A DNA stretch of 44,041 nucleotides from an uncultured virus (IMG/VR IMGVR_UViG_3300022660_003376). Lineage: Duplodnaviria; Heunggongvirae; Uroviricota; Caudoviricetes. The translations under genes were made by a program, and so were the position numbers. Below are positions 1 through 44,041 of the stretch, piece by piece (the first letter of the stretch is position 1; each line of letters opens with the position of its first letter). The notes under the pieces are model-generated. The model was not told where the DNA came from. It ran no database searches and was given only the letters and a program-made list of their open reading frames with translations. The DNA is taken from IMG/VR virus record IMGVR_UViG_3300022660_003376, one strand, 5' to 3'.

Positions 1-747
1 GAAACACAGGATTACCTTAGACAGCTGAATGAGCAGTATATAAAGTTACAGGAACAGCTTAAACTTTTAGAGGGTAAGCCGAAGCCTATAGCACCGTCAT
101 TCACATCGGGCACTCTGTTTTATCCTACAGTTGAGATAAACAATATACCTTTAACTAAAATACTATATATTAAAGAGTATTCACCTTGCAGGTATTTAAC
201 TTCATTTTTACTTGCTTACAGGAACTATTTAAATTATAAGCGTAATAAGAGAGTTAAGTTAGTATTTGTAATACAGAGAGGTACTTGCATTTCTAAGAGA
301 TATGATTTTGCTACGATGATTTCACAGGAGTCTGCAAAAGATGCATCTTTATTTAAGAATGACATAATAGCTGTTAATGTTCCGCAGAAGCAGGTTATTG
401 AAAGACTTCTTAATAAAGATGGTGGTAACTACGACATAGTTATTTTAGTAGACCGTCTTTACAGTGCGAATATTTTAAAAAGTTCACACAAGAACTTTAA
501 GAAGCTAGATGCAATATCAGGCAAGAGTGATATTACCAGATACGGCTTAAATACATCAAATGTAATATTACCTCACATAAGTTTATCAGGCAAAGAATTT
601 GGTTTCATACCTATTATTAAGTCATATCCTGCCGAGGATGAGAACAGCAGATATGTTGCATATCAGCATGCATGTGGCGAAAAGGGTGTTTTGGGTGATA
701 AAGACAAGTCTTTATACGATAAACTTGATAGTTTAATCGGAATTTAG
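1..747 (+). CDS. hypothetical protein, 5'-partial (extends beyond window start)
   Basis: Frame 1 is open from base 1 (ETQDYLRQLNEQYIKLQEQLKLL...) into the tracked ORF 316..747, so the true start lies upstream of the window. Confidence 0.8.
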   Translation, partial: ETQDYLRQLNEQYIKLQEQLKLLEGKPKPIAPSFTSGTLFYPTVEINNIPLTKILYIKEYSPCRYLTSFLLAYRNYLNYKRNKRVKLVFVIQRGTCISKRYDFATMISQESAKDASLFKNDIIAVNVPQKQVIERLLNKDGGNYDIVILVDRLYSANILKSSHKNFKKLDAISGKSDITRYGLNTSNVILPHISLSGKEFGFIPIIKSYPAEDENSRYVAYQHACGEKGVLGDKDKSLYDKLDSLIGI

Positions 748-762
748 TTAGGGGGTTAATAG

Positions 763-2955
763 ATGTTATTTAGACACAAGAAAAGAACAGTACCAGCGAT
801 AAAGTTATGGGATAAGATAGTTTCTTGTTGGTTAAGTAAGAATGATAGTACTCATGGTGAGTTACGTTCAGCACCATATTATATGGACATGAAGGGTATT
901 TATAGTGGCGAGAATAACGTAACTTATGTTTACACAATAGACGGGTATCCTGCTGAGTTAGATATCTCATACAGGAGTTTGCTTCGAAGAGAGTGTAAGG
1001 ACGGGGTACGAATATCGTTCATAAGTACTTTTGACAGACATAGGATACAATGGACATCACCGCAGATGAAATCAAAGCTTCGTACATGGAGATTGCTTGA
1101 CTCTGATGGTGAAGGCGTAGATGCTTATAATATACATGATAACATGGCTATACTCGATAGTCAGGCAAGACGCCGTGAGAGTATAGAGTATCTTACAGAT
1201 GCAGAAATAAGAAGAAGGCGAAAAACCTTTAAGTTTAGAAGTATAATGCTTGTGTCTGGGCAAAGAGGTGATAATTTCAATGATACAATAAAGGAATTGA
1301 CTGAGACCTGTGATGCTATGGGTATAAAGCTAACTAGGGTACTGTTAAATATTCAGGATTATCTGAGTGTGTTTAGTCCGTTTAGTTTAGAGTTTAGTGG
1401 TGATGTGTTAAAGCAATGTGGTAGTAATGTACTTACAGACGAACTGCTTGCAAGGCTAAACACATACGCTCAGGGTACTATCGGTAAGAGAGGTGAGTAT
1501 TGGGGTACTGATATTTATTCATCGTTCCCTTGCTTTAAGGAAGCAAAGAAAACCGCTGAGTCAAATGAAAGTTGGTTGATAACTGCAGAAGCAGGCGGTG
1601 GTAAATCGTTTTTTGTTAAGTCTTTGTGCTTTCAGTTGCTTGCAAATAGTAAGTTTAACGGAACGATAATGGATATCGAAGGTTTTGAGTACATACCGAT
1701 GTCATCTTACTTATCCAATCACGATGACGTGGTAGTTTTAAACATGGCTGAGGGTAGTGGTGTATATTTTGACCCAGTTGAGATAATATTGACTGGAGAC
1801 AAGGATAACGATGAGGGTATGTATAGTTTAAGTACATCATTCACATTGTCAATATTTAAGGTATTGCTTGGAGGGCAGGAAGATGACTGGGTAGACATAG
1901 TTATCAACGATGCAGTAGCTTTAACATACAACAAGCAAGGTGTATTTCAGGAGGATATGAGTACATGGCACAAGTCAAGGGGGTTGACATTGTATGATGT
2001 ATATAATACATTAAAGAGTTTGCTTTCAGACGTAAGCGATGGTTCTATATCTAATAAGTTCGAGCATTCAGACTATGATAAACGTGATAATCCAGATTTA
2101 ATGATGCATACAAATGATAATGACGTAAACAGCTTGGTTACAACTGACCAAGGCTATCAGAAAGCTGTTAATATGTGTCTTGCAAAGGTATCACGATACT
2201 TTGAGCGTGCAGGCACAAGAAGCTCATTATTCCGTAAGAAGATATCAGTTGAGGGTATCCGCAAGGTAAAACTTGTTGTATGCAGTTTCGGTATGGCAGG
2301 TAAGTCAGAAGTAAATGTCGACCCGATACAGATGTCTTTGATGCAGTTATGTGCAGCGAACATCTCATACTTACGCTCGATATTCTCAAAACTTGATGGT
2401 AAGTTTAACTTCAAGTTATGGGAAGAGTTTCAACGTTGGGGTGGTTTCCCTGATTCAGATAAGACAATCACAACAGCTTTAACTGGTGGTCGTAAGTTGG
2501 GCGATATCAATATCATAGTTACAAACAAAGTAAGTGATATACTTGCCAATGATAGATTTGGTATACTATCAAATATAACATCTGTAGCAATAGGTTGTAT
2601 TTGGGATGCTAAGGTAAGGGATGCTTTATGTGATAGATTATCTATTCCTCAGTTGAAACCAGACCTAAACAGGCTTGTAACTGAGAATAAGGATATGACA
2701 TCTTTCACTGAGGGTGATACGTTTATGAGTAATCCTTACAATAAGGCGTTTTTAATCGGCTTAGATAAAACGGTATTCACAATAGCTAGAATGTCATTAC
2801 CAGATGATTTGGCTCAAAGTGATATATTCGCTACAGGTGTTCGTACAGATATTCCAGATGATGATACATTAGAAGATGTTGATTGGGGTACTTCTGAGTA
2901 CGATACAGAAATATCCGAGGAAGACATTTCTTTTATAAAGAGTTTTGGTTTTTAG
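763..2955 (+). CDS. VirB4-like conjugative (T4SS) ATPase
   Basis: 730 aa; Walker A AEAGGGKS followed by IMDIEGFEY; Walker B-like KLWEEFQ; GRKLG motif; size and layout as in VirB4/TcpF-like proteins. Confidence 0.75.
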   Translation: MLFRHKKRTVPAIKLWDKIVSCWLSKNDSTHGELRSAPYYMDMKGIYSGENNVTYVYTIDGYPAELDISYRSLLRRECKDGVRISFISTFDRHRIQWTSPQMKSKLRTWRLLDSDGEGVDAYNIHDNMAILDSQARRRESIEYLTDAEIRRRRKTFKFRSIMLVSGQRGDNFNDTIKELTETCDAMGIKLTRVLLNIQDYLSVFSPFSLEFSGDVLKQCGSNVLTDELLARLNTYAQGTIGKRGEYWGTDIYSSFPCFKEAKKTAESNESWLITAEAGGGKSFFVKSLCFQLLANSKFNGTIMDIEGFEYIPMSSYLSNHDDVVVLNMAEGSGVYFDPVEIILTGDKDNDEGMYSLSTSFTLSIFKVLLGGQEDDWVDIVINDAVALTYNKQGVFQEDMSTWHKSRGLTLYDVYNTLKSLLSDVSDGSISNKFEHSDYDKRDNPDLMMHTNDNDVNSLVTTDQGYQKAVNMCLAKVSRYFERAGTRSSLFRKKISVEGIRKVKLVVCSFGMAGKSEVNVDPIQMSLMQLCAANISYLRSIFSKLDGKFNFKLWEEFQRWGGFPDSDKTITTALTGGRKLGDINIIVTNKVSDILANDRFGILSNITSVAIGCIWDAKVRDALCDRLSIPQLKPDLNRLVTENKDMTSFTEGDTFMSNPYNKAFLIGLDKTVFTIARMSLPDDLAQSDIFATGVRTDIPDDDTLEDVDWGTSEYDTEISEEDISFIKSFGF

Positions 2956-2984
2956 TTTAATAAATTTTGAGAGGAGTCATGGGT

Positions 2985-4062: not shown

Positions 4063-6465
4063 ATGGGCTTTGACGGTTTATCAGGCGGAGGAATGGATGT
4101 AGATTCTCTGAGAGCCGATAGAAATAATAGAATGAACCCACCAGACTTTGCCCCAGGTCAAGAAGACGATTTCTTTGATGACACTTTATTTGGTGGTAGC
4201 GGAGGCTTTGAAAGCAATTCAGGTTTCGGAGACAGTTTTGGTGGCGGTTTCGGTGGAGATAGCTTTGGTGGCGGTGGTTTCGGTGGTGCAGGCACATTCA
4301 ATGCACCACAGCAACCGCAACAACCTACTGAAGTTACATCAGTAGAGGATAAGATATTTGATGGTCTTGCTATAGGTGCTAAGAAAGCCTTTGCTTTCTC
4401 TAAGGCGTTTACTGTATCTATGAAGGGTTTAACACCTAAGTTTTGGGCTTCATGGGGTAGTAATACTTTTGTAGTTGGTTGTGCTTCTGGTGCATTGGGT
4501 TTAATACTCAAGTTATTCAAAGCTGGTACGATAGGTACTGATTTCTTAATAGGTGGTTTGTTATCATCAGCTGTTGGGGTATTTGTATTGATGTTTAAGG
4601 TAGATAAGGCTAAGGCTTACACTTCATTCTACATAGACGAAAATACAACTCCAATAGAGCAGGGCTTTGATGATAATGATTCTATGGATTTTGCAGAAGA
4701 TGATGCGTTTGGCGACGAAGACGCATTTGACGATGAAGACACATTTGATGATGACGAATTCGGAGATGAGGATGCATTTGGAGATGATGACTTCGCTGAA
4801 GATGATTGGGGTGACCAGTCGGATTTTACTGATGGTTCTGATGATTCTAGTTTCTTTACACAGGGTCAAGAGCCATCAGAACCTGTATCAATGGATGAAG
4901 CAGTTGAAACTCTTGCGGAGGTAGAGAAAGGAATGTTTACAAGACAGTATTTATTTGAGACATTTACTAAAGTTATGCCTAGTTATTGTGCTAACTTTTC
5001 TGAAGTAGAGGTAGTTACAGAAGATGATGATGACTTCTACAGATATGAGGGTTTTGTAAGAGAAGCTTGTTCTATTGTAGGTGTAAAGGATGAAGATTTA
5101 CCTAATCTTTTATCACTTGAGCGTACATTGCTTACTGAGAAACTTACGTTTGAAAGACCACCAGGTTTAAGTCCTGAGAAGGTAAAAAATCTTGCTGAAG
5201 AGTTAAGAAGCATGTATGCATATAACGGGGTATCTGTTCAAAATAGCGTAACAGTAGATTCTCAAGTTGTAGGTCGTAGATGCATTATAACAATATACAC
5301 TGGTAAGAAAATAAATGTATCTTTATCGGATATGTATAGCGACCAAGATTGCAAGGATTTTGTATTAAACACAAAGAATTACATGCCTATAATAATTGGT
5401 GTTACACCACAAGGTAAGATTATTTACACAGACTTCAAACAGATTGAGTCGATGATTGTAACAGGTATGCCAAGAAGTGGTAAGTCATGGTTTGTTAAGG
5501 CGATACTTGCTCAGATGTGTGCATATGTACCGCCTAGTGAGTTAAATATTTACATATGCGACCCAAAAGACGGTATCTCAGACTTTAAACCTTTTACATT
5601 ACCACACGTAAAGAAGTTCGCAACTACGCAGGAGAGTATTATAAATACACTAAGACATGTTGTTAGGGTACTTGCTCCAGAGCGTAAGAAAATTATAGGT
5701 GATGCAGGTTTTCAGAAAATATGGGATTACAAGGAGAAAAATCCTAATGTTCATATGCCTGTAATTTATATTGTTATAGATGAGGTTATGTCTTTAGTTT
5801 CAAACATGGGTACTGATAAAGATGCCAAAGACGAGTTTAAGGTGCTTTTAAGAGAGTTGATATCTCAGTTACCTGCTTTAGGTATAAGAATATTTTTAAT
5901 ACCGCATGTTCTCAACAACGAGATTGTCGAGAAGAAAACATCAGATATTGTCGCTTGTAAGATATCTGTTTGTGGTAATGCCGAGCACATTGAGAAAGCT
6001 ACTGGTTCTAAGCCAAAGGATTTTCCTTTTAGTTTATCAAATACTGGTGATATGGCTGTGAGAATGCCGATAGTGTCATCGTCAACTATGTTTATACATG
6101 CCCCTACACTTTTTGACACAGACGGCAAGGTAAATGATTATTTCGCATATATGAGCAAGGTATGGAGTAAGCTTGAGCCAGAAGAGGTAAGGGATTCACG
6201 TGCTACTGATTTATTTGAGGAACAAAACCAGCAAGAGTTACTCAACATGGCGAGTGAGGCATTAAATTTGGATGCAGATGATGCTGACTTTGATGTTTTT
6301 CTTGATGATGATACTCCATCTGATGTCAATGGTACAGGAAGTAATGAAACAAACGATTTACCGACTGAAAGAAGCTTATTCACAGATGAAAACGAGCAGG
6401 GTTTATCGGGTATCGCTGATAGTGCTGTTGCAGATACATCAGACGATGATTTCTTCTTTGGGTAA
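4063..6465 (+). CDS. FtsK/SpoIIIE-family ATPase (TcpA-like coupling protein/DNA translocase)
   Basis: Two TM segments ~aa135-180; Walker A TGMPRSGKS; ICDPK; Walker B IVIDE; Gly-rich and acidic linkers; RBS AGGAGGT. Confidence 0.8.
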   Translation: MGFDGLSGGGMDVDSLRADRNNRMNPPDFAPGQEDDFFDDTLFGGSGGFESNSGFGDSFGGGFGGDSFGGGGFGGAGTFNAPQQPQQPTEVTSVEDKIFDGLAIGAKKAFAFSKAFTVSMKGLTPKFWASWGSNTFVVGCASGALGLILKLFKAGTIGTDFLIGGLLSSAVGVFVLMFKVDKAKAYTSFYIDENTTPIEQGFDDNDSMDFAEDDAFGDEDAFDDEDTFDDDEFGDEDAFGDDDFAEDDWGDQSDFTDGSDDSSFFTQGQEPSEPVSMDEAVETLAEVEKGMFTRQYLFETFTKVMPSYCANFSEVEVVTEDDDDFYRYEGFVREACSIVGVKDEDLPNLLSLERTLLTEKLTFERPPGLSPEKVKNLAEELRSMYAYNGVSVQNSVTVDSQVVGRRCIITIYTGKKINVSLSDMYSDQDCKDFVLNTKNYMPIIIGVTPQGKIIYTDFKQIESMIVTGMPRSGKSWFVKAILAQMCAYVPPSELNIYICDPKDGISDFKPFTLPHVKKFATTQESIINTLRHVVRVLAPERKKIIGDAGFQKIWDYKEKNPNVHMPVIYIVIDEVMSLVSNMGTDKDAKDEFKVLLRELISQLPALGIRIFLIPHVLNNEIVEKKTSDIVACKISVCGNAEHIEKATGSKPKDFPFSLSNTGDMAVRMPIVSSSTMFIHAPTLFDTDGKVNDYFAYMSKVWSKLEPEEVRDSRATDLFEEQNQQELLNMASEALNLDADDADFDVFLDDDTPSDVNGTGSNETNDLPTERSLFTDENEQGLSGIADSAVADTSDDDFFFG

Positions 6466-25659: not shown

Positions 25660-25983
25660 ATGTTCTATGATAATCTTAAAAGAATATGCAAGGAGAACGG
25701 TGTAGGTATTACTAAGTTAGTTGAGACGTCTGGTGTAAGCACGGGTAACATATCAAATTGGAAGAGTGGTAAGTATCCTAACTCTGAGGTTGTTATTATA
25801 CTTGCCAAGGCACTCAACTGTTCGACTGATGCGTTACTTCTAGGCGAAGACAGGAAGATTACGAAGTTAAGTGATGAGGAATTAAAACTATTAGCTTTGT
25901 ATAAATGCCTTAGTCCTGAAGAGCAAAGCGTTTTATACGATAAAGCATTAGACTTGTTTAAATCAAACTACAATTTGGGTTAA
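25660..25983 (+). CDS. XRE/Cro-CI family HTH regulator
   Basis: LKRICKENG..ITKLVETSGVSTGNISNWKSGKYP...LAKALNCSTDALL; typical LSDEELKLL tail. Confidence 0.9.
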   Translation: MFYDNLKRICKENGVGITKLVETSGVSTGNISNWKSGKYPNSEVVIILAKALNCSTDALLLGEDRKITKLSDEELKLLALYKCLSPEEQSVLYDKALDLFKSNYNLG

Positions 25984-26048
25984 ATTTATAAGTTTGCTTG
26001 TAAGCCTGTTTATATAAAATATACAATAATATGCTAGGAGGTATGAAC

Positions 26049-27531: not shown

Positions 27532-27544
27532 CGGAGGTAATTTT

Positions 27545-28030
27545 ATGCTTGAGAAATTTATATTTTCGCCTAGTATGCTAAAGGAAGCAACAGCATGCGT
27601 AGGGATTAATGGTCAGTTCACTGAGTTTGATTTAGGCTCTGAGTGCTTATTTAACGATGCTATTATTAAGTCATTAGAAGACTTAAAGGAGTCATTAAAC
27701 GAGGGCACTTATTTCAGAATTGGAAATTCCCATGCAGAGAGATTTATTTTTAGGAAAGATGCTTGCACAGTAGTCAAGGGTACGGCGGACTTCGAATGCA
27801 GTGGTATCAAGCAGACAGCTAAGGTAAAACTTGCTATTCCTTATGTACGTGAAGAGATTGTAGTACAGAAGTTAAGTGAACTAAAGCGTAGATACAACGA
27901 TAAGGATAGTCTTGAGGTGGAATTGGGTTTGTTATCCTGTGATATATCGGGCATAGAACTAAAAGTAGGAGATGTAGACTCTTATAACGCTTTGCTTAAG
28001 GCTGTTGGGGCTGATTTTAGACCTTTCTAG
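27545..28030 (+). CDS. hypothetical protein
   Basis: GGAGGT RBS before ATG 27545. Confidence 0.7.
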   Translation: MLEKFIFSPSMLKEATACVGINGQFTEFDLGSECLFNDAIIKSLEDLKESLNEGTYFRIGNSHAERFIFRKDACTVVKGTADFECSGIKQTAKVKLAIPYVREEIVVQKLSELKRRYNDKDSLEVELGLLSCDISGIELKVGDVDSYNALLKAVGADFRPF

Positions 28031-28097
28031 TTTTGGAGAGGTTTTGCGGTTAATGGGTTCTATAGTTGGTTGCTTAAAATTTTAGGAAGGTGATATT

Positions 28098-28427
28098 ATG
28101 ACACTTACATTTTCATTTGATGTTGATGCATATATAGAAGATTTTATAGAGAGTTCAGATGATGAGTTCAATGGCTATGAGATAGAAAAAGCCAACGAAG
28201 GATACTATTTTGATGGCGAGTCTATTGCTCTTTCAAGGGAAGACTTATTTAAGACGCTTTATGCTTTGCTTGCTTATCAGGATATAGTATCGGAAAACCA
28301 ACGAATACTGGACACAGGGTATGCTTCGATAGACTCCGATATCCGTAGTGCTATATCTGAGAGAGACAGTTCAATACCGTTTTCGACTTGGCTCAGAACG
28401 GAAATTTACCCGATATTGAGGAGATAA
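28098..28427 (+). CDS. hypothetical acidic protein
   Basis: ORF with AAGGTG RBS, closely coupled to the next gene. Confidence 0.7.
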   Translation: MTLTFSFDVDAYIEDFIESSDDEFNGYEIEKANEGYYFDGESIALSREDLFKTLYALLAYQDIVSENQRILDTGYASIDSDIRSAISERDSSIPFSTWLRTEIYPILRR

Positions 28428-28428
28428 T

Positions 28429-29001
28429 ATGACGCTTGAAGAATATGTTTTAACCTATAAGGATTCTGATGGAAATATAGTAATTAATATCGCTGATTAC
28501 TTTGAGAGGTTTATCAAGCCGTTAGACAAGAAATTTGAAAATAGTTCGTTTCACACTCACAGAACAGTAATATGTTGCTTTAGAGACCACGATGATAACG
28601 ACCCATCTTTAGGTACGATTAATCATAGACATCTAAAAGGCGTTAAGGTATATCACTGTTTTGGTTGTGGCAAGTCTGGCACAGTAATAAGACTACATCA
28701 GCGTATCCAACAGGAGTATCATAATAGGAAGTTAAGTGATACGGAGTCTGCTCTGGAATTGTGTGACTTATTTGGGGTAGATGCCTCGAAGTATCGAAGT
28801 ATAGCTAACAAGAGTGAAAAATCGGGGTACTTGGAGCGTAGTCGCAAGGCTGATTTATTTGTATATGCATACGCTTTACCTGAGTTTAAGGATGAACTAC
28901 AGACTGCAAGAACAGCTAAAGTAATGCTTATGGAACGTGCTAAGATGATAAACTCTGCGATAGTAAAAATGACAGCAACATCTAAGAAGTTGTATGATTA
29001 A
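28429..29001 (+). CDS. stand-alone CHC2 (DnaG primase-type) zinc-finger protein
   Basis: CCFRDHDDNDPSL...YHCFGCGKSG, followed by helix SALELC; no TOPRIM domain. Confidence 0.8.
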   Translation: MTLEEYVLTYKDSDGNIVINIADYFERFIKPLDKKFENSSFHTHRTVICCFRDHDDNDPSLGTINHRHLKGVKVYHCFGCGKSGTVIRLHQRIQQEYHNRKLSDTESALELCDLFGVDASKYRSIANKSEKSGYLERSRKADLFVYAYALPEFKDELQTARTAKVMLMERAKMINSAIVKMTATSKKLYD

Positions 29002-29015
29002 TAAGGTGTGTTATT

Positions 29016-29924
29016 ATGGAGCATTATTTCGTATATTTCAATAGCAGTAGTGGTACTGACGGGCATGTAGTAAGTGGCTGTGTCCCAGGGGGTAATTGGG
29101 TGATACCTGTGGATTTTAGTGTGGATAATAATTTAATGCTCACATGGGCACAAGATAAACAAAGACAGTATATAGAGGGGTTATTATCTTTAGAAACAGA
29201 CTATAAAGGCTTATTACAGTATGTTATGAGGGCTAAGTTATGTGGTTTACCTGTAGAATATGTTACTTTGGTATATGACGATAGACCTATAAATATATTG
29301 GATTTTAGTTACGATGATTTATTTAAGGAAACTATATTAGTTAGTGGTAGTGAACTGTACGATGAGACTGATATAGAAGATATAATCATAAAGAGGTTTA
29401 GGCGTGATGTAGAGTTAGACCGAAGGAATAGGGTTTATTCTTACTGGTATAATTTCGAGAAGAAGCATTGGTTAATTATTTCTAAGATAGACGATAAACT
29501 GTATATACAAATCGAGAAATACGGGGTATCTGAGCCATACGAGTATTGTATAGATAGCGTATCACGTATTACTGGCGTAACACTAGACAGCATCAGTTCC
29601 GAAACAGGTATAGATTTTAAAGAAGATAAGTTCTTCAGGGTATCAATATATTTCTTCATAGCAATGCAAGTATATATCAAAGACCCAAGTAAACTAAAGT
29701 ATTTGAGTGATGATATTATCAATCACGAGGCTTCATCTAAGACTGATTTAGATATGAGTAAGTTTAGCGTTTTGGGTGAGTTGGTATTAAATGCAGGGTT
29801 ACTTCAGTGGTGCGTTGACTGTGAAATACCCTCTGATTTACAGTTGGGTGTATCGAGTGGCAGTTGGAAAGACCCAAAGACACAAGAAAACGTGTTAAAT
29901 TTATTAAACAATAAGGAGATATAA
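29016..29924 (+). CDS. hypothetical protein
   Basis: 302-aa ORF in a tight operon. Confidence 0.75.
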   Translation: MEHYFVYFNSSSGTDGHVVSGCVPGGNWVIPVDFSVDNNLMLTWAQDKQRQYIEGLLSLETDYKGLLQYVMRAKLCGLPVEYVTLVYDDRPINILDFSYDDLFKETILVSGSELYDETDIEDIIIKRFRRDVELDRRNRVYSYWYNFEKKHWLIISKIDDKLYIQIEKYGVSEPYEYCIDSVSRITGVTLDSISSETGIDFKEDKFFRVSIYFFIAMQVYIKDPSKLKYLSDDIINHEASSKTDLDMSKFSVLGELVLNAGLLQWCVDCEIPSDLQLGVSSGSWKDPKTQENVLNLLNNKEI

Positions 29925-29927
29925 CAA

Positions 29928-30902
29928 ATGAACATAGGTATTTCAGTCGATGATATAGATTTGTTTGTAGAGCCTGTTATACAGCCACAGAATACCGAAC
30001 CTGTATATAAGACTTTAACATCGGAGTCAATATTATCTGTATTTAAGAGTGGTATTGGTTTGGATATCGCTAAAAACCATACGGGTGTAAGCATATGGCG
30101 AGACGGTGTATTAACTACGCAGGGTTTTGCAATAGATATGGAGTATGAAAAGACCGACTATATGGCTGAAGCGAAGATGCGTTTAGAGTTCAAGAAAAAG
30201 CTGACTGAGATACTGCAGGGGTATGACTGGGAAGTATGTGTTGTAGAAGACGTTTACGGAGGTACAAATTTCGACACAACACGTAAGTTATTGGCTTTAA
30301 ACTGTGTTGTAGATGAATTGGCTCTTGAGGGTATCATTAATATAGAACACATATACAGGCTTAAGGAAGCTGAATGGATGCGTAGTCTTAGGCAACTCAC
30401 TAAGGCAGGTAGGCGTTTAAACTCTAAGTATGAGTGTCAAGCGATATTAGAGTATATAAACTTTCCATTTTATCTTGAAAACAAGGATAAAACGGATACT
30501 TACAAGAAGTCGATATTCTTTGAGGATAGATGTGATGCTACTGGTCAGTTACTTGCTCTTGCTTTGAAGATGACAGAAGTAGATAATGGTTTAAAGAGTA
30601 GCTCTGTTAAGTTATCTAATGTTTATATGGAATACTTCGAGGACGATGACGATATTTATTTAACTGGAGATAAGGTTCTTTGTGAGGCTAATATATTAGT
30701 TGAGGAATATCCTGAAGGTGTAAAGAATGTGGAGTCTGTTTTATTAGAATTTGTGGAGAAAAACCCAGATTACATTATAATGATGAGAGTACAAAATGTT
30801 CAATTGGGTACTTTCGGAATAGCCAATGGGTTTACATATTACGAGCAAGGTTTTGGGTATCTTGTTTTTTATGATAAATCCTTGAGACGTAAGTATAAAT
30901 AA
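29928..30902 (+). CDS. RuvC-like Holliday junction resolvase with C-terminal extension
   Basis: GIGLDIAKNHTGVS, VVEDVY, EW, DRCDA: RNase H-fold acidic motifs. Confidence 0.7.
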   Translation: MNIGISVDDIDLFVEPVIQPQNTEPVYKTLTSESILSVFKSGIGLDIAKNHTGVSIWRDGVLTTQGFAIDMEYEKTDYMAEAKMRLEFKKKLTEILQGYDWEVCVVEDVYGGTNFDTTRKLLALNCVVDELALEGIINIEHIYRLKEAEWMRSLRQLTKAGRRLNSKYECQAILEYINFPFYLENKDKTDTYKKSIFFEDRCDATGQLLALALKMTEVDNGLKSSSVKLSNVYMEYFEDDDDIYLTGDKVLCEANILVEEYPEGVKNVESVLLEFVEKNPDYIIMMRVQNVQLGTFGIANGFTYYEQGFGYLVFYDKSLRRKYK

Positions 30903-30919
30903 TTCAAGGGGGTATTATA

Positions 30920-31189
30920 ATGGTATCGAAGTTTATGGTAATACAGACGATAGCTAATGAGGTAGGTGTGAAGTCAATGCAAAGAGGTGCTTCTGGTGTA
31001 AGTCAAACTGTAAAAATAGAAGAAACGCCAGCATCTCTTAGACATGCTTGCACAATGGGAGGAATATCGTATTTACCGAAGAATATGTATACTTGTGATT
31101 TATCGGGTGGTTATGGACAGCCTGTAAGTATACCTTATTATTTCTGTAGTGTTTGTGGTAAATTCTTTATATACAATGATTTCATGTGA
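30920..31189 (+). CDS. small Cys-containing (Zn-ribbon-like) protein
   Basis: HAC ... YFCSVCGK. Confidence 0.65.
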   Translation: MVSKFMVIQTIANEVGVKSMQRGASGVSQTVKIEETPASLRHACTMGGISYLPKNMYTCDLSGGYGQPVSIPYYFCSVCGKFFIYNDFM

Positions 31190-31206
31190 CAATTGGTGGG
31201 TAGTTT

Positions 31207-31857
31207 ATGTTTTATTTAATAGAGTTAAAGAACCATGCATATGTGCTAGACACATCTGATAATGTTATTGACAAGGTTTCACGTGCGACATTTAACAAAA
31301 TAATCAAGAGCATAGCAATACAGGGTGCAGGTACATCGTGTAATGATTCAGTGCCTTGTGTACCTAATGATTATAGGGTACTAACTGATTTAAGAAGTTC
31401 TTGTGCATTGGTTTTGAATGAAATATTCACGATAGTGGATGAAGCAGGGATACATACACATTTTGCAGGCAAGGCGATAGTGACTGGAATAAAGGGTATG
31501 CAGACCTTGAAAAATTTATTGTCTTGTGGTATAATTGCATTGAAGTCCGTAATAAATCTGGATGGTCTTGTATTGGATACTACTGAGGTAGCAATTACAT
31601 ATACTGCGAATACATTTGATACTTTGCCTAATGGCATATATCTTTCAGACTACTTGATATTTAGCTATTTCTATGCTGATGCTAATAGGGAGTATATGAG
31701 TGTATCTAAGAAATTAGATTTTCCATTCAATGCACCCTACGGCTTATCGTCTAATACGTCTATGTTTCAGGAGTTTGAATTTGCAGGAAATTTTAAAAAG
31801 ACGTACTGGGATTTAAGACAGTACCTATTAAATAAATATATTGTATTAAAAATATAG
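31207..31857 (+). CDS. hypothetical protein sharing an N-terminal module with 21939..24869
   Basis: MFYLIELKNHAYVLDTSDNVIDKVS...IAIQG. Confidence 0.7.
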   Translation: MFYLIELKNHAYVLDTSDNVIDKVSRATFNKIIKSIAIQGAGTSCNDSVPCVPNDYRVLTDLRSSCALVLNEIFTIVDEAGIHTHFAGKAIVTGIKGMQTLKNLLSCGIIALKSVINLDGLVLDTTEVAITYTANTFDTLPNGIYLSDYLIFSYFYADANREYMSVSKKLDFPFNAPYGLSSNTSMFQEFEFAGNFKKTYWDLRQYLLNKYIVLKI

Positions 31858-32090
31858 GGGTATTCATAATTCAAGACTTTTTATTCAAAATAAGATTGCG
31901 AAATTTTAATACAGACATTACGCTAGTTAAGCGGTCTATGAAATAAAACATTAACAAAAATTACGAGTTAATTCATATGACGAAGTTCGGCTCAAAATGT
32001 TTAAGTAATTTCAAATTTTAAAATAAAATTCAGCTGATACTCTTAATAATTGGTGTATCAGCTAAAACTTTGGTTTAAGTGGGAGGCTTT

Positions 32091-32378
32091 ATGGACACGA
32101 GCATTACGAGAGTAGTTATAGATTCGTTCACTCCACAGACAAGTGGTACTTGTGCTGAGGTATCAGTAGTAATAAACGATGCTTTAGCTATACATAAGAT
32201 TTCAGTGATAAGCGGAGAACGAGGGTTATTTGTTGCGATGCCAAATACAGGTCAGACTAAGATGTCTAAGAACGGTAAGCGTTTCTCAGACATAGTTCAC
32301 CCTCTTAATAAGGATTTGGCATCTCAGATATCAGATGCTGTTTTAAATGCATATAATGCAAAATTAAAGAGTAAGTAG
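32091..32378 (+). CDS. spoVG: SpoVG-family nucleic-acid-binding protein
   Basis: IT.V.I...A.VSVVINDALAIHKISVISGERGLFVAMP...FSDIVHPL...I..AVL.AY; GGAGG before ATG 32091. Confidence 0.9.
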   Translation: MDTSITRVVIDSFTPQTSGTCAEVSVVINDALAIHKISVISGERGLFVAMPNTGQTKMSKNGKRFSDIVHPLNKDLASQISDAVLNAYNAKLKSK

Positions 32379-32381
32379 GGT

Positions 32382-32420
32382 AAATCACGGGTACTTTACA
32401 AAGTATTCGTGATTTTTTCT
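32382..32420 (+). terminator. intrinsic terminator
   Basis: AAATCACGGGTACTTT/AAAGTATTCGTGATTT stem plus T tract. Confidence 0.75.
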
Positions 32421-32466
32421 GTGATATTGAATATATTTAATAGTAAAATGAAAGGTGGTATAATAT

Positions 32467-34047
32467 TTGGGCAGGGCGAAGATAGTAGAGTATAAAAATG
32501 ATAGATACAAGGGTAGTCTAACTGATGCTCAGTGTGACCAGTTGGAGCGAATAATAGATATAGACAGCAGAGGCGAAGCTTTTCATGATTTAACTCATTT
32601 GATATATGAACTTTCTGAGACAGACACTCATAAGCTTATAACTACTATGGAGGAAGAAGGGCGAGAAGCGGACGATATTGATATGAAGCATGGTACGCTT
32701 ACACCTATGCAAACTACAGGCGTAGCGTATATGTACATAGCTAAGGATTGCATGTTGGGTGACTCGGTTGGTCTTGGTAAGACTATAGAAACTGCTGGTC
32801 TTGTACGTATGTTACAGCAGGAGTATGCACAGCAGGGCAAGGAGTTTAAGTATTTGATGTTGACTGAGAAGAACCTTATAAATCAAACAAGGTTTAAGAT
32901 GGTTCGCTTCACAGGGCAGTATGTGCATAGCTTGGAAGGAGACAAAAAGAGTTGTTCTAATTTTATATCTTGGTATCCTTTCGGGACTAATTTAAGACAT
33001 AGTATAGTGGGTAGTCACACCTTACTTAATCAGCCTGTTTTTACTGCTTGGTTGGCTGAGTGTTATAGTCAGGGTATGTTTCCATTTGATATGTTAATTG
33101 TGGATGAAAGTGCTGTTTTAGGCAATTCCACGGCAGGCATCTCTAAGAACGCATCGATATTAATGCCGTACTTTAATCGTAGGATATTTTTAAACGCTAC
33201 ACCTTTCAAGACTAAGCTTGATAGTTTTTATAATCAGCTTAATTTGTTAGACCCTAAGTTACTGCCAACAAAGACTAATTTCCAAGCTGAGTATGTAATA
33301 TTTGATTATCGAGGAGCATATCGCAAGCCATCGGGTAAGTATAAGAATGCTAATCAGTTTAGGAGACTAATTGGTTATCGTTATTTCGCCAGAACGAGAG
33401 AAGAGAAAGGTGCTGTAATGGAGGGTTGTACTGGTAAGGTTGTTGTTTCACCACTATCCAAGGCACAGAAAGAGTGCTTAAGGAAAACAATGATACCGCA
33501 AATGGTATATGATTGCCCTAGTGCAATAGACCCAGACATAGATTATTGTATGGATAATGTGCCGAAGCTACAGAGTATATATCAACTGCTTACCGAAGAT
33601 TGTGTAGATGCAGAGACAATATTGATATTTGTAAATTACCATGAGGCACAGGAGTGTTTATCTGAGTGGTTGACATGCAATGGGTATTCCAACAGGATAC
33701 TCTGTGGTGAGACTAAAGACGCTGATAGGGTACGCATAATAAATGGTTTTAAGAATGCTGATTTTAGGATTCTTTTAACTAATGTACAGAAAGGTCTTGA
33801 CTTTGGTAATTGTGATTACTGTATATTCTACAGTTTCGACCCAAGTCCAGCAAATATGGTACAGTTCGAGGGTAGAATTACCCGTAGTTTTGACATAATA
33901 AATAAGCATATTATGCTATTATGTTCTGAGGGAAAAGAACTTGATAGATTAAATGATGTTATCAAGGCAAGAGCGAAAGCCAGCTCTGAGTTTACGAAGG
34001 CAGACTTGTCTTGTGTAATGTCGTTATTATTGGATGGTAAAGGATGA
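32467..34047 (+). CDS. SF2 SNF2-like helicase
   Basis: GDSVGLGKT, IVDESA, LNATP, ILIF, KGLDF, QFEGRITR. Confidence 0.85.
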   Translation: MGRAKIVEYKNDRYKGSLTDAQCDQLERIIDIDSRGEAFHDLTHLIYELSETDTHKLITTMEEEGREADDIDMKHGTLTPMQTTGVAYMYIAKDCMLGDSVGLGKTIETAGLVRMLQQEYAQQGKEFKYLMLTEKNLINQTRFKMVRFTGQYVHSLEGDKKSCSNFISWYPFGTNLRHSIVGSHTLLNQPVFTAWLAECYSQGMFPFDMLIVDESAVLGNSTAGISKNASILMPYFNRRIFLNATPFKTKLDSFYNQLNLLDPKLLPTKTNFQAEYVIFDYRGAYRKPSGKYKNANQFRRLIGYRYFARTREEKGAVMEGCTGKVVVSPLSKAQKECLRKTMIPQMVYDCPSAIDPDIDYCMDNVPKLQSIYQLLTEDCVDAETILIFVNYHEAQECLSEWLTCNGYSNRILCGETKDADRVRIINGFKNADFRILLTNVQKGLDFGNCDYCIFYSFDPSPANMVQFEGRITRSFDIINKHIMLLCSEGKELDRLNDVIKARAKASSEFTKADLSCVMSLLLDGKG

Positions 34048-36190: not shown

Positions 36191-36330
36191 ATTATATTAT
36201 ACAGAGGAGTTTCTAATAGTAAGTTATTTATGCAGAAATAAGTATAGGTTCGGCACGTTTCATAAGTTTTTGTATAAAACGTGTTGTTTTGTATATTAAT
36301 AAATTCTTATTTAAAGAAAGGGGTATTCCT

Positions 36331-37746
36331 TTGAATAATATAAAATTAGAGATATCAGACTTTTTAAGTTACTATGATTTAAACGGTGATGAGGCTATAG
36401 AGAGTGCTCATGTTGAGAGATTAGAAAACTTTATATATCAATGCAACAAGGCTATGGTTGATGGCACACCTTTAGTAGCTGATGCTATATACGATAGATT
36501 GTACGATATATTAAAGACCGTCAATCCCGATTCGAGATATTTAAAAGAATTGTGGTCGGATGCAGATGAGGTTGAAGACGAGGAGTTTATAAATGATGAC
36601 TTACAGCTCCATTTACGCACAAGCCCTATGCTAAGTATCTGTACATGTAAGTCATATGATTGTCAGGAGTTACTCGATTTCGTAAAGAGACTTCCTGATA
36701 ACACACCATTTGACGCACATATTTCCTGTAAGGAGAATGGACATGGTATAAGAATAGTATACAAAGATGGTGCTTATGTAAGTGCTACAAGTAGAGCAAG
36801 ACGGTCTGCAGGTCATGATATAACAAAGCAAATGGGTATAATCCTTGCAAATCAGGGTCTTGACTATATAGAAGACTTTGCAGAGCGTGGTATAGTTGAG
36901 GTTCGTGGTGAGGTTGTACTACCTTTAAGTAAGTTAAGTGATGCAAGAGCGTATAACCCAACAATAGCTTCTGCATTCTCAGGGGTATCATCTATGTTAA
37001 GAGACAGTGCTACTCCAGAGGAGAATTTACTGCTTAACTTTATTGCATACAAGGTATTATTTGATGATGCTGAGTTTGAAACAAAGTCTGAGGAGTACAA
37101 TTATCTCGATAGTTTAGGCTTTACAGTACCTTTACATTGGCTTGTAGAGGGTCTTACAAAGGAGACTTTGCTCGCAGAGTTACCTAGTATAGTAAGTGAC
37201 TGCGAAGACTCAGTATTGGGCGAAAACGGTGATGAAGCTTATGACTATTACACAGACGGTCTAGTATTCGAGTTAGACGACAGAGAATTATTTTATTCTT
37301 TGGGTGGTGACTCTAAATACAATTATGGTAATGTAGCCTTAAAAGTGGGGTATTGGAAGCAGGATATGCTTTCAGGTTATGTGCAGTGTATAATGTGGAC
37401 TGACGGAAAGGTTAAGTACTCCCCTGTTGCTATAGTTGCTGAAGAGCCAGACATGATTGAATTTGAAGACTTGGATAATCACGACTATATTAAATCTCAG
37501 AGTGAAATTTCCAACTGGAGTGAGTTGGGTGTTGCAACTCAGAACGGTAATAGGGTGAGACGAATACCTTTATATGAGCCAAACAACATTGCTATACTGA
37601 ATGCAGTTGTGGGTAATATACTGCACTTTAGGTATGGTGGTGAAGCAGGGGTAGTTCCTTGTTTCAGTGATGGTACACCGTTATCTGAGGGTCGCATTTC
37701 TCAGATATTTGAGGATGAGGAAGATGCTTGGGATTATGGTGACTAG
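36331..37746 (+). CDS. divergent NAD-dependent DNA ligase-like protein (Ia, adenylation and OB domains only)
   Basis: DAIYDRL, PMLSI, motif I CKENG, EVRGE, TDGLV, ALK, SPVA; no Zn/HhH/BRCT; TTG 36331 follows AAAGGGG. Confidence 0.8.
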   Translation: MNNIKLEISDFLSYYDLNGDEAIESAHVERLENFIYQCNKAMVDGTPLVADAIYDRLYDILKTVNPDSRYLKELWSDADEVEDEEFINDDLQLHLRTSPMLSICTCKSYDCQELLDFVKRLPDNTPFDAHISCKENGHGIRIVYKDGAYVSATSRARRSAGHDITKQMGIILANQGLDYIEDFAERGIVEVRGEVVLPLSKLSDARAYNPTIASAFSGVSSMLRDSATPEENLLLNFIAYKVLFDDAEFETKSEEYNYLDSLGFTVPLHWLVEGLTKETLLAELPSIVSDCEDSVLGENGDEAYDYYTDGLVFELDDRELFYSLGGDSKYNYGNVALKVGYWKQDMLSGYVQCIMWTDGKVKYSPVAIVAEEPDMIEFEDLDNHDYIKSQSEISNWSELGVATQNGNRVRRIPLYEPNNIAILNAVVGNILHFRYGGEAGVVPCFSDGTPLSEGRISQIFEDEEDAWDYGD

Positions 37747-40580: not shown

Positions 40581-42149
40581 ATGGCTAATTTTGAAAACTA
40601 CGATGATTTATTAGATGATGAAGAATTTGATGATATGTTAGATGATGATGATGAAGAAAGCGATGATATGTTAGATGATGAAGAAGAAAGTGGTGATATG
40701 TTAGACGCTGAAGAGGACGAAGGTTTTCTCGGAGAGGATGATGACTCTATCGGGGATAGTTACTCTGAACAAGAAGCTTCAGAAGACGAGGCTGACTATT
40801 CTAATGTAGATGACTTGGACGGTGATACTGAGGATATTATCACTAGTGCAACTACAGCAGACACAGCTTTTCAGGAAAGCAGTGCTGTTGATGAGCAGTT
40901 ATTAAAGCTTACAAGCGATAAATTCTCTCTGGAGCGTAAGACTATAAAAATAAAGGAAATAGGCTACAGCGAGTTTACCAAGAGGGGTAGATGGAAGACT
41001 GTAACAGGTTTAACTCAAACTGTTAAGGAACTTGGGGTACTTACTCCAATTCACGTAATGACTACTGAGGTTGACGAGGATGATGACGATAGTTTCAAGT
41101 ATGTTCTTATAGACGGCATGCGTAGGGTATTCGCATCTATTAAGAACGGATTAACTGATATTGAGGCTGTAGTTTGGGATTTCAAAGACAAGGATTTCGG
41201 TGCTGATTTAACACTGGCTTTAGGTTTAATGCTTAATAGACAGCAACGCAGACAGTGGTCTGAGGTGTGGGACTTATACAGAATACTTGAGATGCAGTCA
41301 GCTATAACCCCAGGAACTCTTGAGTTTTTGTTACAGCTTGAAAGCGGAGATGCAATGAAGCTTAAAGACGTAATGCTTTGTGAATACTCGGAAGTTAAGG
41401 AGTCCTTGCTTAATGGTGAAAAGGACTTGGACGGAGCATATAAGATGCTTGCAAAACTACGTAAAGAAGAAGACCAATTAGCAAAAGACGATGCTACTGG
41501 CTTTAGTGATACGGTAGAAACTGCTGAGGAATTTAGAGGTGATTCTGTAAGTGCACAGGACGGACAGCTCACCGACCAAGACGTATATGAATTGCTTGAA
41601 ATGGCTGATAGTTTGGATTCAGAAGATGTATCTGAGGATGATTTTAATGCAATGAATATGCAAGCTGAGGGGTATGCAGACCAGCAGAAAGTTGGAGAGC
41701 GTCATCCTCTCGACCCTACTTTGAGACAGTCTGTTCTGGTACGTGATAAGTTTACTTGTCGTTGCTGTGGTATGAAGATGATAGGTGCTAGACTGGGATT
41801 GATAGCGGTGCATCACTGCATTCCTGTACATGCAGGCGGTAAAGATGTACTTGAGAACCTTATTACATTGTGCTTAAACTGCCATGTTGACTTGCATGTT
41901 ATGGAGCGTAACGGTGGTTCTATCATGATGAGTAAGGAAGATTTCGATGATTTGTTGCCTAGTGAGCAGACTTCATTAAAGCGTGCTTTAAGACTTGCAC
42001 GTGTTGCTATTGAAGCAGATAGACGAAAAGGTTTATCTAAGGAACAGGTTTCAGAAGCAACAAAGTCGGCTGTAAGACACATAATGCCAGGAACAGGTTT
42101 GAAAGAGAACCAGATGGCTTACAGCAATGCTCAACATGCTGAGGTTTAG
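40581..42149 (+). CDS. ParB/Srx-domain plus HNH endonuclease fusion with acidic N-terminus
   Basis: VKELGVLTPIHV...YVLIDGMRRV (ParB-N); RDKFTCRCCG...VHHCIPVHAGGKDVLENLITLCLNCH (HNH). Confidence 0.85.
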   Translation: MANFENYDDLLDDEEFDDMLDDDDEESDDMLDDEEESGDMLDAEEDEGFLGEDDDSIGDSYSEQEASEDEADYSNVDDLDGDTEDIITSATTADTAFQESSAVDEQLLKLTSDKFSLERKTIKIKEIGYSEFTKRGRWKTVTGLTQTVKELGVLTPIHVMTTEVDEDDDDSFKYVLIDGMRRVFASIKNGLTDIEAVVWDFKDKDFGADLTLALGLMLNRQQRRQWSEVWDLYRILEMQSAITPGTLEFLLQLESGDAMKLKDVMLCEYSEVKESLLNGEKDLDGAYKMLAKLRKEEDQLAKDDATGFSDTVETAEEFRGDSVSAQDGQLTDQDVYELLEMADSLDSEDVSEDDFNAMNMQAEGYADQQKVGERHPLDPTLRQSVLVRDKFTCRCCGMKMIGARLGLIAVHHCIPVHAGGKDVLENLITLCLNCHVDLHVMERNGGSIMMSKEDFDDLLPSEQTSLKRALRLARVAIEADRRKGLSKEQVSEATKSAVRHIMPGTGLKENQMAYSNAQHAEV

Positions 42150-43051: not shown

Positions 43052-43651
43052 ATGAGCAGAAAGTTATTGAGTTTAGACAAGGAAAACGGTGGCAAGGTTT
43101 ATATAGGTGTAGATGCAGAAAGCTATGAGCGAGCATTCCCGAAGCCAAAAGTAAATAATACAGAGGGTATGCCTACTAAGTCTATACAGTTAGATAGCAA
43201 TGGTATGAGGGTAGCTTATCCTAAAACTCTGTATCATAATGAAATATACGCTAAGTCTGAAGACTTTACTCCTGTTAAAGTAAAACCTAGTTTGAGTAAA
43301 TACCGTAGGGCTACTAAGAAAAGAGCACTTAGCACAGACGTGTCATCTGCTAAAGTAAAGCCTAATTTGAGTAAATACTATAAGACTACTAAGCAAAGGG
43401 CAATTAGCACAGATGTGTCATCTGCTAAAGTAGTTAAAATCAAGGGTAGGAGCATTTCATCAAAGAGAAACCCCAAGTCACGTTATGAGTTTTATAGGCA
43501 TAAGTTAGTTATAGCACTTTTAGCGGTAAGTACACTTTTAGCAGTAAGTGTGCTTTTACTTGTACTTTATTTGTTGGCTAGGATTTCGCCAATAATACCA
43601 GTAGTATTTCTTAGTATCTCACTCCTTGCATATGGGAAATATATGCGTTGA
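43052..43651 (+). CDS. membrane protein, RVAYP-motif family copy 2
   Basis: RVAYPKTLYHNEIYAK, basic 25-aa repeat, C-terminal TM segments. Confidence 0.75.
   Translation: MSRKLLSLDKENGGKVYIGVDAESYERAFPKPKVNNTEGMPTKSIQLDSNGMRVAYPKTLYHNEIYAKSEDFTPVKVKPSLSKYRRATKKRALSTDVSSAKVKPNLSKYYKTTKQRAISTDVSSAKVVKIKGRSISSKRNPKSRYEFYRHKLVIALLAVSTLLAVSVLLLVLYLLARISPIIPVVFLSISLLAYGKYMR
43276..43432 (+). repeat. intragenic tandem repeat, 2 x 75 bp
   Basis: TAAAGTAAA(A/G)CCTA(G/A)TTTGAGTAAATAC...GTGTCATCTGC at 43276 and 43351. Confidence 0.85.
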
Positions 43652-43750
43652 GATGCGTAGAAAATCACGAGATATTGCGTTATACACCGTATAAAATATA
43701 TACAAGCAATTTTTATACGAGAAAAATAATGAGTTATCGGAGGTTAGATT

Positions 43751-43915
43751 ATGAGTAATATAGGTACGAGCCGAAAGACTATAAATCTTAATAAAGGAAT
43801 AAGCACTTCTCATATAGGATATGATGGAGATGGTTGCAGAGTGGCTTATCCAGATACACTATACTCTGAGGAAATATATCCTAAGCGAAATGATACAGGC
43901 TTATTTAGAAAAGAC
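43751..43915 (+). pseudogene. RVAYP-motif family copy 3, apparently interrupted by an IS insertion
   Basis: RVAYPDTLYSEEIYPKR present, then the frame runs into the IS end at 43916 and stops with no TM segments. Confidence 0.6.
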
Positions 43916-44041
43916 GTGACATCCTCCCCCACCTGTAGAGGTGGGGGCTTCCCATCTCTATAGATAAGTTTCGGTTCTCGTTCGATAGTACTAACGTACT
44001 AAGCATAAGCGAGCTAACCCCGTATGTCCTACGGTTTTTAT
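43916..44041 (-). mobile_element. right end / omegaRNA scaffold of an IS200/IS605- or IS607-type TnpB element (partial)
   Basis: Minus strand reads ACCGTAGGACATACGGGGTTAGCTCG...GAAGCCCCCACCTCTACAGGTGGGGGAGGATGTCAC; subterminal hairpin 43926-43947; TCAC end. Confidence 0.75.

Follow-up and report, generated by a model that had tools for sequence, protein, structure and literature searches.

Several short, strand-biased words are known to impart architecture to the replicons that carry them. Escherichia coli FtsK reads the FtsK-orienting polar sequences (KOPS; GGGNAGGG), the SpoIIIE recognition sequences (SRS) are their Bacillus subtilis counterpart, and Chi is GCTGGTGG in E. coli and AGCGG in B. 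subtilis. Chi sites are typically short, rich in G and placed on the G-rich (leading) strand, and their known sequences differ between Firmicute genera. Other abundant words bias DNA movement to self: the DNA uptake sequences (DUS) of Neisseria, the uptake signal sequences (USS) of Haemophilus, reported to be evenly spread, and the clt/TRS repeats (TRS, TraB recognition sequences) of Streptomyces TraB. Primases also start at short words; the extended pentamers of phage T7 gp4 are GGGTC, TGGTC and GTGTC, and pppACCC is made at GGGTC. Here we describe the pentamer GGGTA in a 44,041-bp stretch of DNA (hereafter the window), IMG/VR record IMGVR_UViG_3300022660_003376, which is classed as an uncultured virus of the Caudoviricetes. 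We conclude that GGGTA is a selected, oriented signal specific to a family of elements that includes the giant plasmid pXO16.

The closest described replicon, pXO16, is a giant conjugative plasmid, identical to the deposited pBTHD789-1, in which all coding sequences are reported to share one orientation (PMC6199540). Its transfer is reported to be single-stranded, to proceed via a distant type IV secretion system and to reach 100% of recipients within minutes; plasmids lacking an origin of transfer (oriT) and chromosomal DNA are mobilised as well, only at about 1e-5 to 1e-6 (PMC6199540). By one account, no relaxase or oriT has so far been identified for pXO16 (PMC9673590). Inocles, too, are described as giant and plasmid-like; their gene set is similar, but they have two replichores (PMC12340149).

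GGGTA counts, polarity and spacing

GGGTA occurs 172 times on the + strand of the window and its reverse complement TACCC four times, the largest strand difference among all pentamers there. The array extends through the window (1..44041), with a mean gap of 254 nt and a maximum of 822 nt, and the local consensus around its sites is (A/G)GGGTA(T/C)(T/C). The only reverse-oriented copies start at 22135, 28407, 29827 and 33879 (span 22135..33883). A first-pass annotation of the window had picked out GGGTA by eye and proposed that it is an oriented signal and not a by-product of coding. Its description agrees well with our counts. The four TACCC copies are where it placed them, and 14 and 13 GGGTA sites fall in positions 1-3000 and 20000-23000, for each of which it gave about 14. 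It put GGGTA at roughly half of all GGG runs; TA follows 172 of the 379 runs of at least three Gs (45%), compared with 16% after exactly GG. GGGTAT (85) and GGGTAC (44), said to predominate, account for 129 of the 172 sites. Finally, the sites that it noticed right after stop codons, at 31858, 32378 and 37746, each abut or overlap a stop codon; a further site, at 6460, contains one.

All 40 of the long open reading frames (ORFs) used lie on the + strand, and the base composition (A 32.3%, T 30.5%, G 23.2%, C 13.9%) corresponds to a G>C skew of 0.25. Base composition predicts 54.5 copies of GGGTA, and Markov models of orders 1-3 predict 45.6, 69.5 and 117.4, respectively; by Markov z, GGGTA is the top pentamer of the window. 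We also used a synonymous shuffle, in which codons are swapped within genes such that the protein, hence all dipeptides, and the codon usage of each gene are preserved (n=300). The shuffled sequences contain 77.3±6.1 copies and at most 94, against 172 observed (z 15.5). Thus, enrichment survives the very comparison on which the first-pass annotation had staked its proposal. A codon-order shuffle gives 60.3±6.5. When all pentamers are ranked by synonymous-shuffle z, GGGTA comes first at 10.4, with the runner-up at 4.8, and all 15 of its one-mismatch neighbours are at or below expectation. The excess is found in each codon phase (4.2x, 2.8x and 2.0x) and in non-coding DNA; the annotation had noted occurrences of the word in all of these. 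Non-coding sites number 14 vs 4.1 expected in the window, and 59 vs 13 and 213 vs 38 in two long relatives introduced below (G001 and pXO16, respectively), a range of 3-6x.

TACCC shows no significant depletion in the window (4 vs 8.2 in the synonymous shuffle, z -1.5); the polarity is therefore a one-strand gain of GGGTA on top of the G>C skew. In pXO16 and G001, reverse copies are similarly close to expectation (46 vs 59.6 and 52 vs 42). EcoP15I sites in phage T7 have a strand bias as an escape from type III restriction, and they resemble GGGTA as a non-palindromic word in essentially one orientation. In that case, however, one orientation is lost and the other is not gained. We reject such an origin for GGGTA, since its forward copies are gained 2.2x and its reverse copies are near expectation. 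Copying of repeats or paralogues is likewise rejected as the source of the sites, since all 172 have distinct 15-mers and distinct 25-mers around them.

The sites are spaced more evenly than random ones. Gaps have a coefficient of variation of 0.79 in the window, 0.85 in G001 and 0.81 in pXO16, compared with 1.00±0.03-0.08 for random placement; the longest gaps are 822, 1080 and 1710 nt, compared with 1434, 1517 and 2779 nt expected; and gaps shorter than 30 nt are under-represented. Among frequent pentamers, GGGTA ranks first of 111 for evenness in the window, first of 139 in G001 and second of 246 in pXO16, where only the overlapping GGGGT is more evenly spaced. Its distribution along genes is flat, and long genes lacking it are few (0 of 17 in the window, 0 of 52 in G001 and 5 of 83 in pXO16). 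Between relatives at 84-93% nucleotide identity, 49-82% of GGGTA sites are conserved, compared with 47-72% for all pentamers. Hence, density is kept while single sites turn over. Spacing and turnover of this kind are typical of a statistical signal (KOPS, Chi and priming sites are examples) and not of individual binding sites.

The word across pXO16-like replicons

The GyrA-like protein of the window (13826-15970; this and all window genes named below were called by a Pfam search of the window's ORFs and lie on its + strand) served as the query with which we found the family. Its relatives in metagenomes number in the hundreds, on contigs as long as ~500 kb, and its best match in PLSDB, at 37% identity, is encoded by pBTHD789-1 (NC_018516), that is, by the 350-kb pXO16 of B. 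thuringiensis serovar israelensis. Nine gene types are syntenic between the window and this plasmid, all in one orientation: those for the FtsK, SpoVG, SNF2/DEAD helicase, helix-turn-helix, GyrB-like, GyrA-like, DnaB-like, CHC2 and non-specific endonuclease proteins. On the evidence of its gene content, the window is best regarded as part of a giant plasmid related to pXO16. We rejected a tailed phage, since capsid, portal, terminase and tail genes were not found in the window or in G001, a 140-kb IMG/VR relative filed as a provirus: structural PHROG families match 0 of 29 window ORFs at 1e-4 and 0 of 130 ORFs of G001, 73% complete by the estimate of its record, at E<=1e-5. G001, the record behind locus L001, seems to be a piece of a pXO16-like plasmid. 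The window had no near-identical DNA match in a phage collection, and its DNA was found in animal faecal and bovine-gut metagenome runs. Apart from pXO16, no member of this family, a large group of giant elements from animal and human guts, appears to have been cultured.

GGGTA bias is a property of this family. Raw counts reveal it in each of the 19 clade loci of at least 8 kb (drawn from L001 and L005-L027; GyrA-like identity 38-52%, GC content 31-47%), with GGGTA:TACCC ranging from 47:6 to 115:4, and in 0 of 35 distant loci, which reach at most 21:12. We applied the synonymous shuffle to 11 clade loci (five near-duplicates and two short ones were left out) together with pXO16, the window and G001; GGGTA is enriched in all 14, with z from 3.0 to 17.8. 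G001, in which all genes lie on one strand, has 660 copies against 52 reverse copies on the coding strand, every 5-kb bin being alike and all 29 having the same polarity. Circular pXO16 has 930 against 46 and a uniform G skew, and all 35 of its 10-kb bins share one polarity (20-36 forward vs 0-6 reverse). No genuine opposite-strand genes were found in either replicon; pXO16 does have 20 ORFs of at least 150 amino acids on its other strand, but these resemble antisense artefacts. The first-pass annotation had suggested following polarity along the full replicon for a switch at the origin or terminus, and there is none in these two long relatives. Hence, pXO16-like replicons look unidirectional. 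Since polarity never switches, the polarities of transcription, replication and transfer are inseparable by sequence alone.

The window shares with pXO16 its gene module and gene order, a single coding orientation and the polar GGGTA. It differs in that its GyrA-like protein is only 37% identical, and in that its consensus is GGGTA(T/C)(T/C) whereas the core in pXO16 is GGGGTA, which makes up 658 of the 930 sites and is the top hexamer (658 vs 288 expected). The two also differ in source, B. thuringiensis for pXO16 and animal faecal and bovine-gut metagenomes for the window element.

Outside the family the signal is missing. In four plasmids resident in the same B. thuringiensis strain as pXO16, GGGTAT relative to its backwards control stands at 120/154, 77/81, 50/63 and 36/52 (0.7-0.95), compared with 380/121 (3.1x) in pXO16 itself; judged by these four plasmids, the bias is not a host property. 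Neither pCW3, which relies on an FtsK-like coupling protein for conjugation, nor three Firmicute phages with distantly related topoisomerases show a GGGTA signal.

Such a signal seems not to have been described. Our search of full-text literature retrieved no paper tying GGGTA or GGGGTA to phage, strand or pXO16, although the primary pXO16 papers (Makart 2015, 2018) might mention the motif. What we did not find described in combination is a word belonging to a mobile-element family and missing from co-resident replicons, with uniform polarity round a 350-kb circle and the most even spacing. GGGTA would be an architecture-imparting sequence of a mobile element rather than of a chromosome, and it offers a concrete cis-acting handle on how pXO16-like replicons are copied or moved. 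The plasmid pXO16 has long been studied, transfers very fast and can be cultured; its oriT, relaxase and replication mode are described as still to be found (PMC9673590). As a practical marker, a GGGTA:TACCC ratio of 15-40:1 together with G>C skew picks out family members in metagenomes and orients their fragments.

Candidate readers of the word

The reading that we favour, tentatively and at well short of even confidence, is that GGGTA is where the element's own primase, a split enzyme of the DnaG type, prefers to start on the lagging or transferred strand. When pXO16 drives the mobilisation of rolling-circle plasmids, an intact and correctly oriented single-strand origin is reported to be required (PMC6199540), which suggests a limiting role for the priming of the incoming strand in the pXO16 system. 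Two replication proteins are conserved in the window, pXO16 and G001: a DnaB-like replicative helicase (16395..17894; Pfam DnaB_C), syntenic with the DnaB-like gene of pXO16, and a stand-alone CHC2 zinc-ribbon protein of 190 amino acids (28429..29001), the zinc-binding domain of a DnaG-type primase. The CHC2 protein matches PF01807 with an E of 3.3e-6, above the curated cut-off, as well as the PHROG DNA primase family, and its zinc ligands are kept in the pXO16 and G001 homologues. G001 encodes a separate DnaG core (DNAG_N plus Toprim_2), of which pXO16 has a homologue; none was found within the window. Further replication proteins of G001 are a clamp, a clamp loader, RNase H and a ligase. The zinc-binding domain of DnaG is reported to set the initiation trinucleotide and to be able to act in trans, and Firmicute DnaG to start at CTA or TTA (PMC2978363); the GTA of GGGTA fits this NTA form. 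Primases of phages and organelles are described as using sites of 3-4 nt with a cryptic 3' base, among them GTC, GTT, GCA and (G/C)GGA (PMC5737085). The single-strand-origin requirement, the element's own replisome and the NTA form are the considerations for which we therefore rank a primase start site first; a primase site was among the candidates of the first-pass annotation, and it is provisionally kept as the best of them.

On the primase reading, GGGTA, a strand-specific cis-signal of pXO16-like giant Firmicute plasmids, would be read by element-encoded machinery. The CHC2 protein and the separate catalytic core would recognise GGGTA together, with 5'-GTA-3' as the initiation trinucleotide, in which the 3' A would be cryptic and the T would template the first base. 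The two upstream Gs would give a C-rich primer, pppACCC, that could anneal stably in AT-rich DNA. In this the word would resemble established primase sites: it would be a short word on a single-stranded template, it has a central T and a 3' purine like Firmicute NTA, it would yield the primer that T7 makes at GGGTC, and the family encodes a DnaG-type zinc domain and core. If replication is co-oriented with transcription, the G-rich coding strand that carries the sites would be the lagging-strand template, as we infer from the usual skew rule and the co-orientation of genes. Repeated priming on the same strand would also be needed if it is the one that enters the recipient in conjugation, and the even spacing would provide a start site within about 1-2 kb everywhere. 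Both the identity of this strand, lagging or transferred, and the primase as reader are inferred. That the reverse orientation is not clearly selected against is expected if only one strand is read, as single-stranded DNA.

Several observations weigh against the primase. The link between it and GGGTA is drawn from sequence comparison. In phage T7, used as a control, primase sites are neither enriched nor polar (GGGTC 39/55, TGGTC 79/62 and GTGTC 43/42 on the two strands), which shows that enrichment need not accompany known primase sites; T7 differs as well in that the primase of the family is split into two proteins. To our knowledge, genome-wide enrichment and even spacing are not known features of primase sites. 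Within the window the weaker GTA contexts AGGTA, TGGTA and CGGTA are not enriched, and GGGTA is predicted to be no more accessible as a single strand (0.56 and 0.55) than permutations of its letters. All genes lie on the motif strand, so polarity of replication, transfer and transcription are indistinguishable. One site per 250-380 nt seems denser than the spacing of Okazaki fragments needs, and 88 of the 930 pXO16 sites lie in short spacers in which they are probably part of ribosome-binding sites. Finally, GGGTC is strongly avoided on the motif strand (11 vs 78.5 in pXO16, 1 vs 37.5 in G001), which the primase model does not predict.

A broader formulation, which we regard as possible though less likely than not, is that the whole plasmid acts as a distributed single-strand origin or origin of transfer, with the one-strand array read by the plasmid's primase, which would be carried into the recipient or act early there, or by its export motor. 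If this is true, a strand of 250-700 kb could be exported from any point and made duplex within minutes, without the classical pair of oriT and relaxase. It would also explain how pXO16 reaches 100% of recipients when DNA lacking an oriT does so hundred-thousand-fold less.

We consider it rather unlikely that GGGTA is a dispersed directional transfer signal that replaces oriT by loading or orienting the export machinery, be it the FtsK-like ATPase or a partner, much as KOPS or the clt repeats of TraB do. Such a signal would suit a plasmid for which no relaxase or oriT is named (PMC9673590), and the difference between 100% of recipients for pXO16 and ~1e-5 to 1e-6 for oriT-less DNA calls for a feature acting in cis (PMC6199540). 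The motif is also uniform round the pXO16 circle, evenly spaced and family-specific, and an FtsK/SpoIIIE-family ATPase is conserved in the window (4063..6465, 800 amino acids), G001 and pXO16. The nearest solved chains of the window protein are FtsK, EccC and a DNA translocase coupling protein, and it is probably the coupling or translocation ATPase of a transfer locus. Its N-terminus is rich in Gly and Asp, it has a membrane-like segment and long acidic linkers, and its C-terminal tail, likewise acidic, ends in FFFG. However, the gamma (winged-helix) domain is missing: PF09397 gives no match at E<=1, and the last ~80 residues are acidic and of low complexity. Reverse copies are not clearly depleted in the window, pXO16 or G001, unlike those predicted for a guide of a double-strand translocase; pXO16 transfer is reported to be single-stranded (PMC6199540); and pCW3, which has the FtsK-like TcpA, lacks the signal.

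KOPS and SRS are like GGGTA in being G-rich, biased to the G-rich (leading) strand and repeated over the replicon, and this element too encodes an FtsK-family ATPase. KOPS differ in that they are 8 nt long, not 5, and belong to the host, whereas GGGTA belongs to a plasmid family; in the bins of pXO16 and G001 the polarity of GGGTA shows no convergence on any dif-like site, its reverse orientation is not clearly depleted and the FtsK-like protein lacks the gamma reading domain. Hence, the proposal of the first-pass annotation that GGGTA is a KOPS-like site for FtsK loading is not upheld, given the missing domain, the constant polarity, the near-normal number of reverse copies and the silence of pCW3. 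DUS, USS and clt differ in being read as double-stranded DNA, in lying on both strands and in serving uptake or double-strand transfer, whereas transfer of pXO16 is reported to be single-stranded (PMC6199540).

Action at the level of RNA or transcription strikes us as improbable. Here GGGUA in mRNA, or GGGTA in the non-template strand of the transcription bubble, would be bound by a factor acting on stability, processivity or antitermination, as the ops element, which contains GGTAG, is by RfaH. The motif strand is the sense strand throughout, GGGTA occurs in terminator stems and in Shine-Dalgarno-like spacers, and a nucleic-acid-binding protein of the SpoVG family (32079-32378) is conserved. 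Downstream of the SpoVG gene, a terminator-like hairpin read from the sequence (32378..32430, + strand) has GGGTA in its 5' arm, and the 3' arm pairs with it by G-T(U) wobble and not as TACCC; of the 12 non-coding copies of TACCC in G001, several likewise face a GGGTA in terminator hairpins. Against this, the distribution along genes is flat, and no NusG/RfaH-type NGN domain was found in pXO16 or G001 by a search that was positive in 10 of 14 control genomes. Intergenic enrichment is ~4x in every length class, and long spacers, when cut into thirds, hold 42, 33 and 37 sites from first to last, the middle thirds amounting to 11.7 kb. In the DNA that follows a predicted terminator and stops 40 nt short of the next gene, GGGTA occurs 45 times where 13 are expected (77 intergenic regions of three replicons). 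This enrichment past terminators leans towards a DNA-level signal, the terminators and promoters being predicted. Moreover, we know of no RNA-level signal that works at such a density, four copies per kb, and in every reading frame.

Ribosome binding touches a part of the sites. In pXO16, spacers shorter than 60 nt add up to 4.9 kb and hold 88 of the 930 GGGTA (18 per kb). Most of these read AGGGGTA, and their GGGGT probably doubles as a ribosome-binding site, which suggests such a use in the family. In the window, a possible start codon lies 2-10 nt downstream of at most 18 of the 172 sites, internal codons included, and we reject ribosome-binding sites as the main source of GGGTA.

Quite improbable, too, is a Chi-like or self-marking signal that tames a helicase-nuclease, either host AddAB or an enzyme of the element, or that spares self DNA. 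Chi is likewise short, G-rich, biased to the leading strand and read from one strand, and the 5-nt Chi of B. subtilis occurs at comparable density; one-strand reading would make reverse copies neutral, as observed. Candidate enzymes are at hand, namely a DNA/RNA non-specific endonuclease (26440..27531; Pfam Endonuclea_NS_2, syntenic in pXO16) and a ParB-HNH protein in the window, and SbcCD-like, RecJ-like and RecD-like proteins in G001. Chi differs, however, in being a host property that varies between genera. No enrichment is seen in the four plasmids that share a B. thuringiensis strain with pXO16, the same word is found from Bacillus to gut-metagenome elements across 31-47% GC, and the RecD-like protein of G001 has no detectable pXO16 homologue. 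The co-resident plasmids and the GC range of the family make a host Chi, also suggested by the first-pass annotation, unlikely.

Very improbable is a strand-specific nicking site of the ParB-HNH protein, which would act like the small HNH nicking enzymes of phages and create entry points for strand displacement or transfer. The protein is a ParB-N/HNH fusion of 522 amino acids (40581..42149) that is conserved in the window, G001 and pXO16 (44% identity between window and G001, 37% between G001 and pXO16); sites on one strand would avoid double-strand breaks, and no relaxase is named for pXO16 (PMC9673590). For the target of a nickase, however, 3-5 sites per kb seem harmful, and neither a gain of sites nor their even spacing is obviously predicted.

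The idea that GGGTA is a functionless by-product of composition skew, codon-pair bias or context-dependent mutation can draw on the ratio of about 9:1 expected from skew and coding bias alone (77 vs 8) and on other strongly deviating pXO16 words (AAACT and AGAAG, z about 13), but we give it hardly any credence, since the enrichment survives a shuffle that preserves proteins and codons, affects all phases, is stronger in non-coding DNA, concerns the exact word only, comes with the most even spacing among frequent pentamers in three replicons and is missing from co-resident plasmids that share the host's mutation and translation. In this, the central proposal of the first-pass annotation, an oriented signal that is not a coding by-product, is supported.

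Gene content and other sequence features

The three potential readers to which the first-pass annotation pointed, an FtsK-like ATPase, a primase zinc finger and ParB, are all matched by Pfam. Upstream of the FtsK-like gene lies that of a HerA/DUF87-type ATPase of 730 amino acids (763..2955; Pfam DUF87), VirB4-like by context. The GyrA-like protein forms a type II topoisomerase pair with a GyrB-like subunit (10296-12440), and an RNase T-like exonuclease is encoded between them (12504-13109). The SpoVG-family gene pairs with that of a SNF2/DEAD-type helicase (32467-34047), as it does in pXO16. An NAD-dependent DNA ligase-like protein (36289..37746; Pfam DNA_ligase_aden) and a helix-turn-helix protein are also encoded. 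Rfam and tRNA scans of the window found nothing.

In G001, a gene for an 1126-amino-acid protein (L091:14471-17851, minus strand) adjoins that of the DnaG catalytic core. Its product, the RecD-like protein mentioned above, combines a RecD/TraA-type helicase half (AAA_30, AAA_19, UvrD_C_2) with ~550 N-terminal residues that have no assignment, and could be a relaxase-helicase; no homologue of it was detected in pXO16 or the window.

Other words deviate as well. Five palindromes are absent from the window (observed vs order-1 Markov expectation: GATC 0/122, GCGC 0/41, GGCC 0/35, CGCG 0/27.5, CCGG 0/23), CTAG is low (63 vs 181), and pXO16 has a single GATC where 611 are expected; the missing tetranucleotides look like strong avoidance of restriction sites. 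GAGCT occurs once in the window, compared with 29 expected from the synonymous shuffle or 48 from the order-1 Markov model, and GAGCTC is absent. Besides its avoidance in pXO16 and G001, GGGTC is below expectation on the coding strand of the window (5 vs 10.6), and GACCC, like AGACC, is enriched on the coding strand (GACCC: 132 vs 67 in pXO16, 43 vs 15 in G001). GACCC/GGGTC may represent another polar word. Runs of a single base are avoided as well; AAAAAA occurs 5 times vs 24.5 in the window and 36 times vs 793 in pXO16.

Two ORF-free stretches, 35269-35465 and 35757-36291, have no Rfam match and no GGGTA. They contain several near-consensus promoters of the sigma-A type (TTGACA, ~17 nt, TATAAT), each followed by hairpins and T-runs, and could be small RNA genes. 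Finally, the 3' end of the window carries an unusually C-rich inverted repeat at 43930-43990, roughly CCTCCCCCACC, a loop and GGTGGGGGC, in surroundings that are poor in C.

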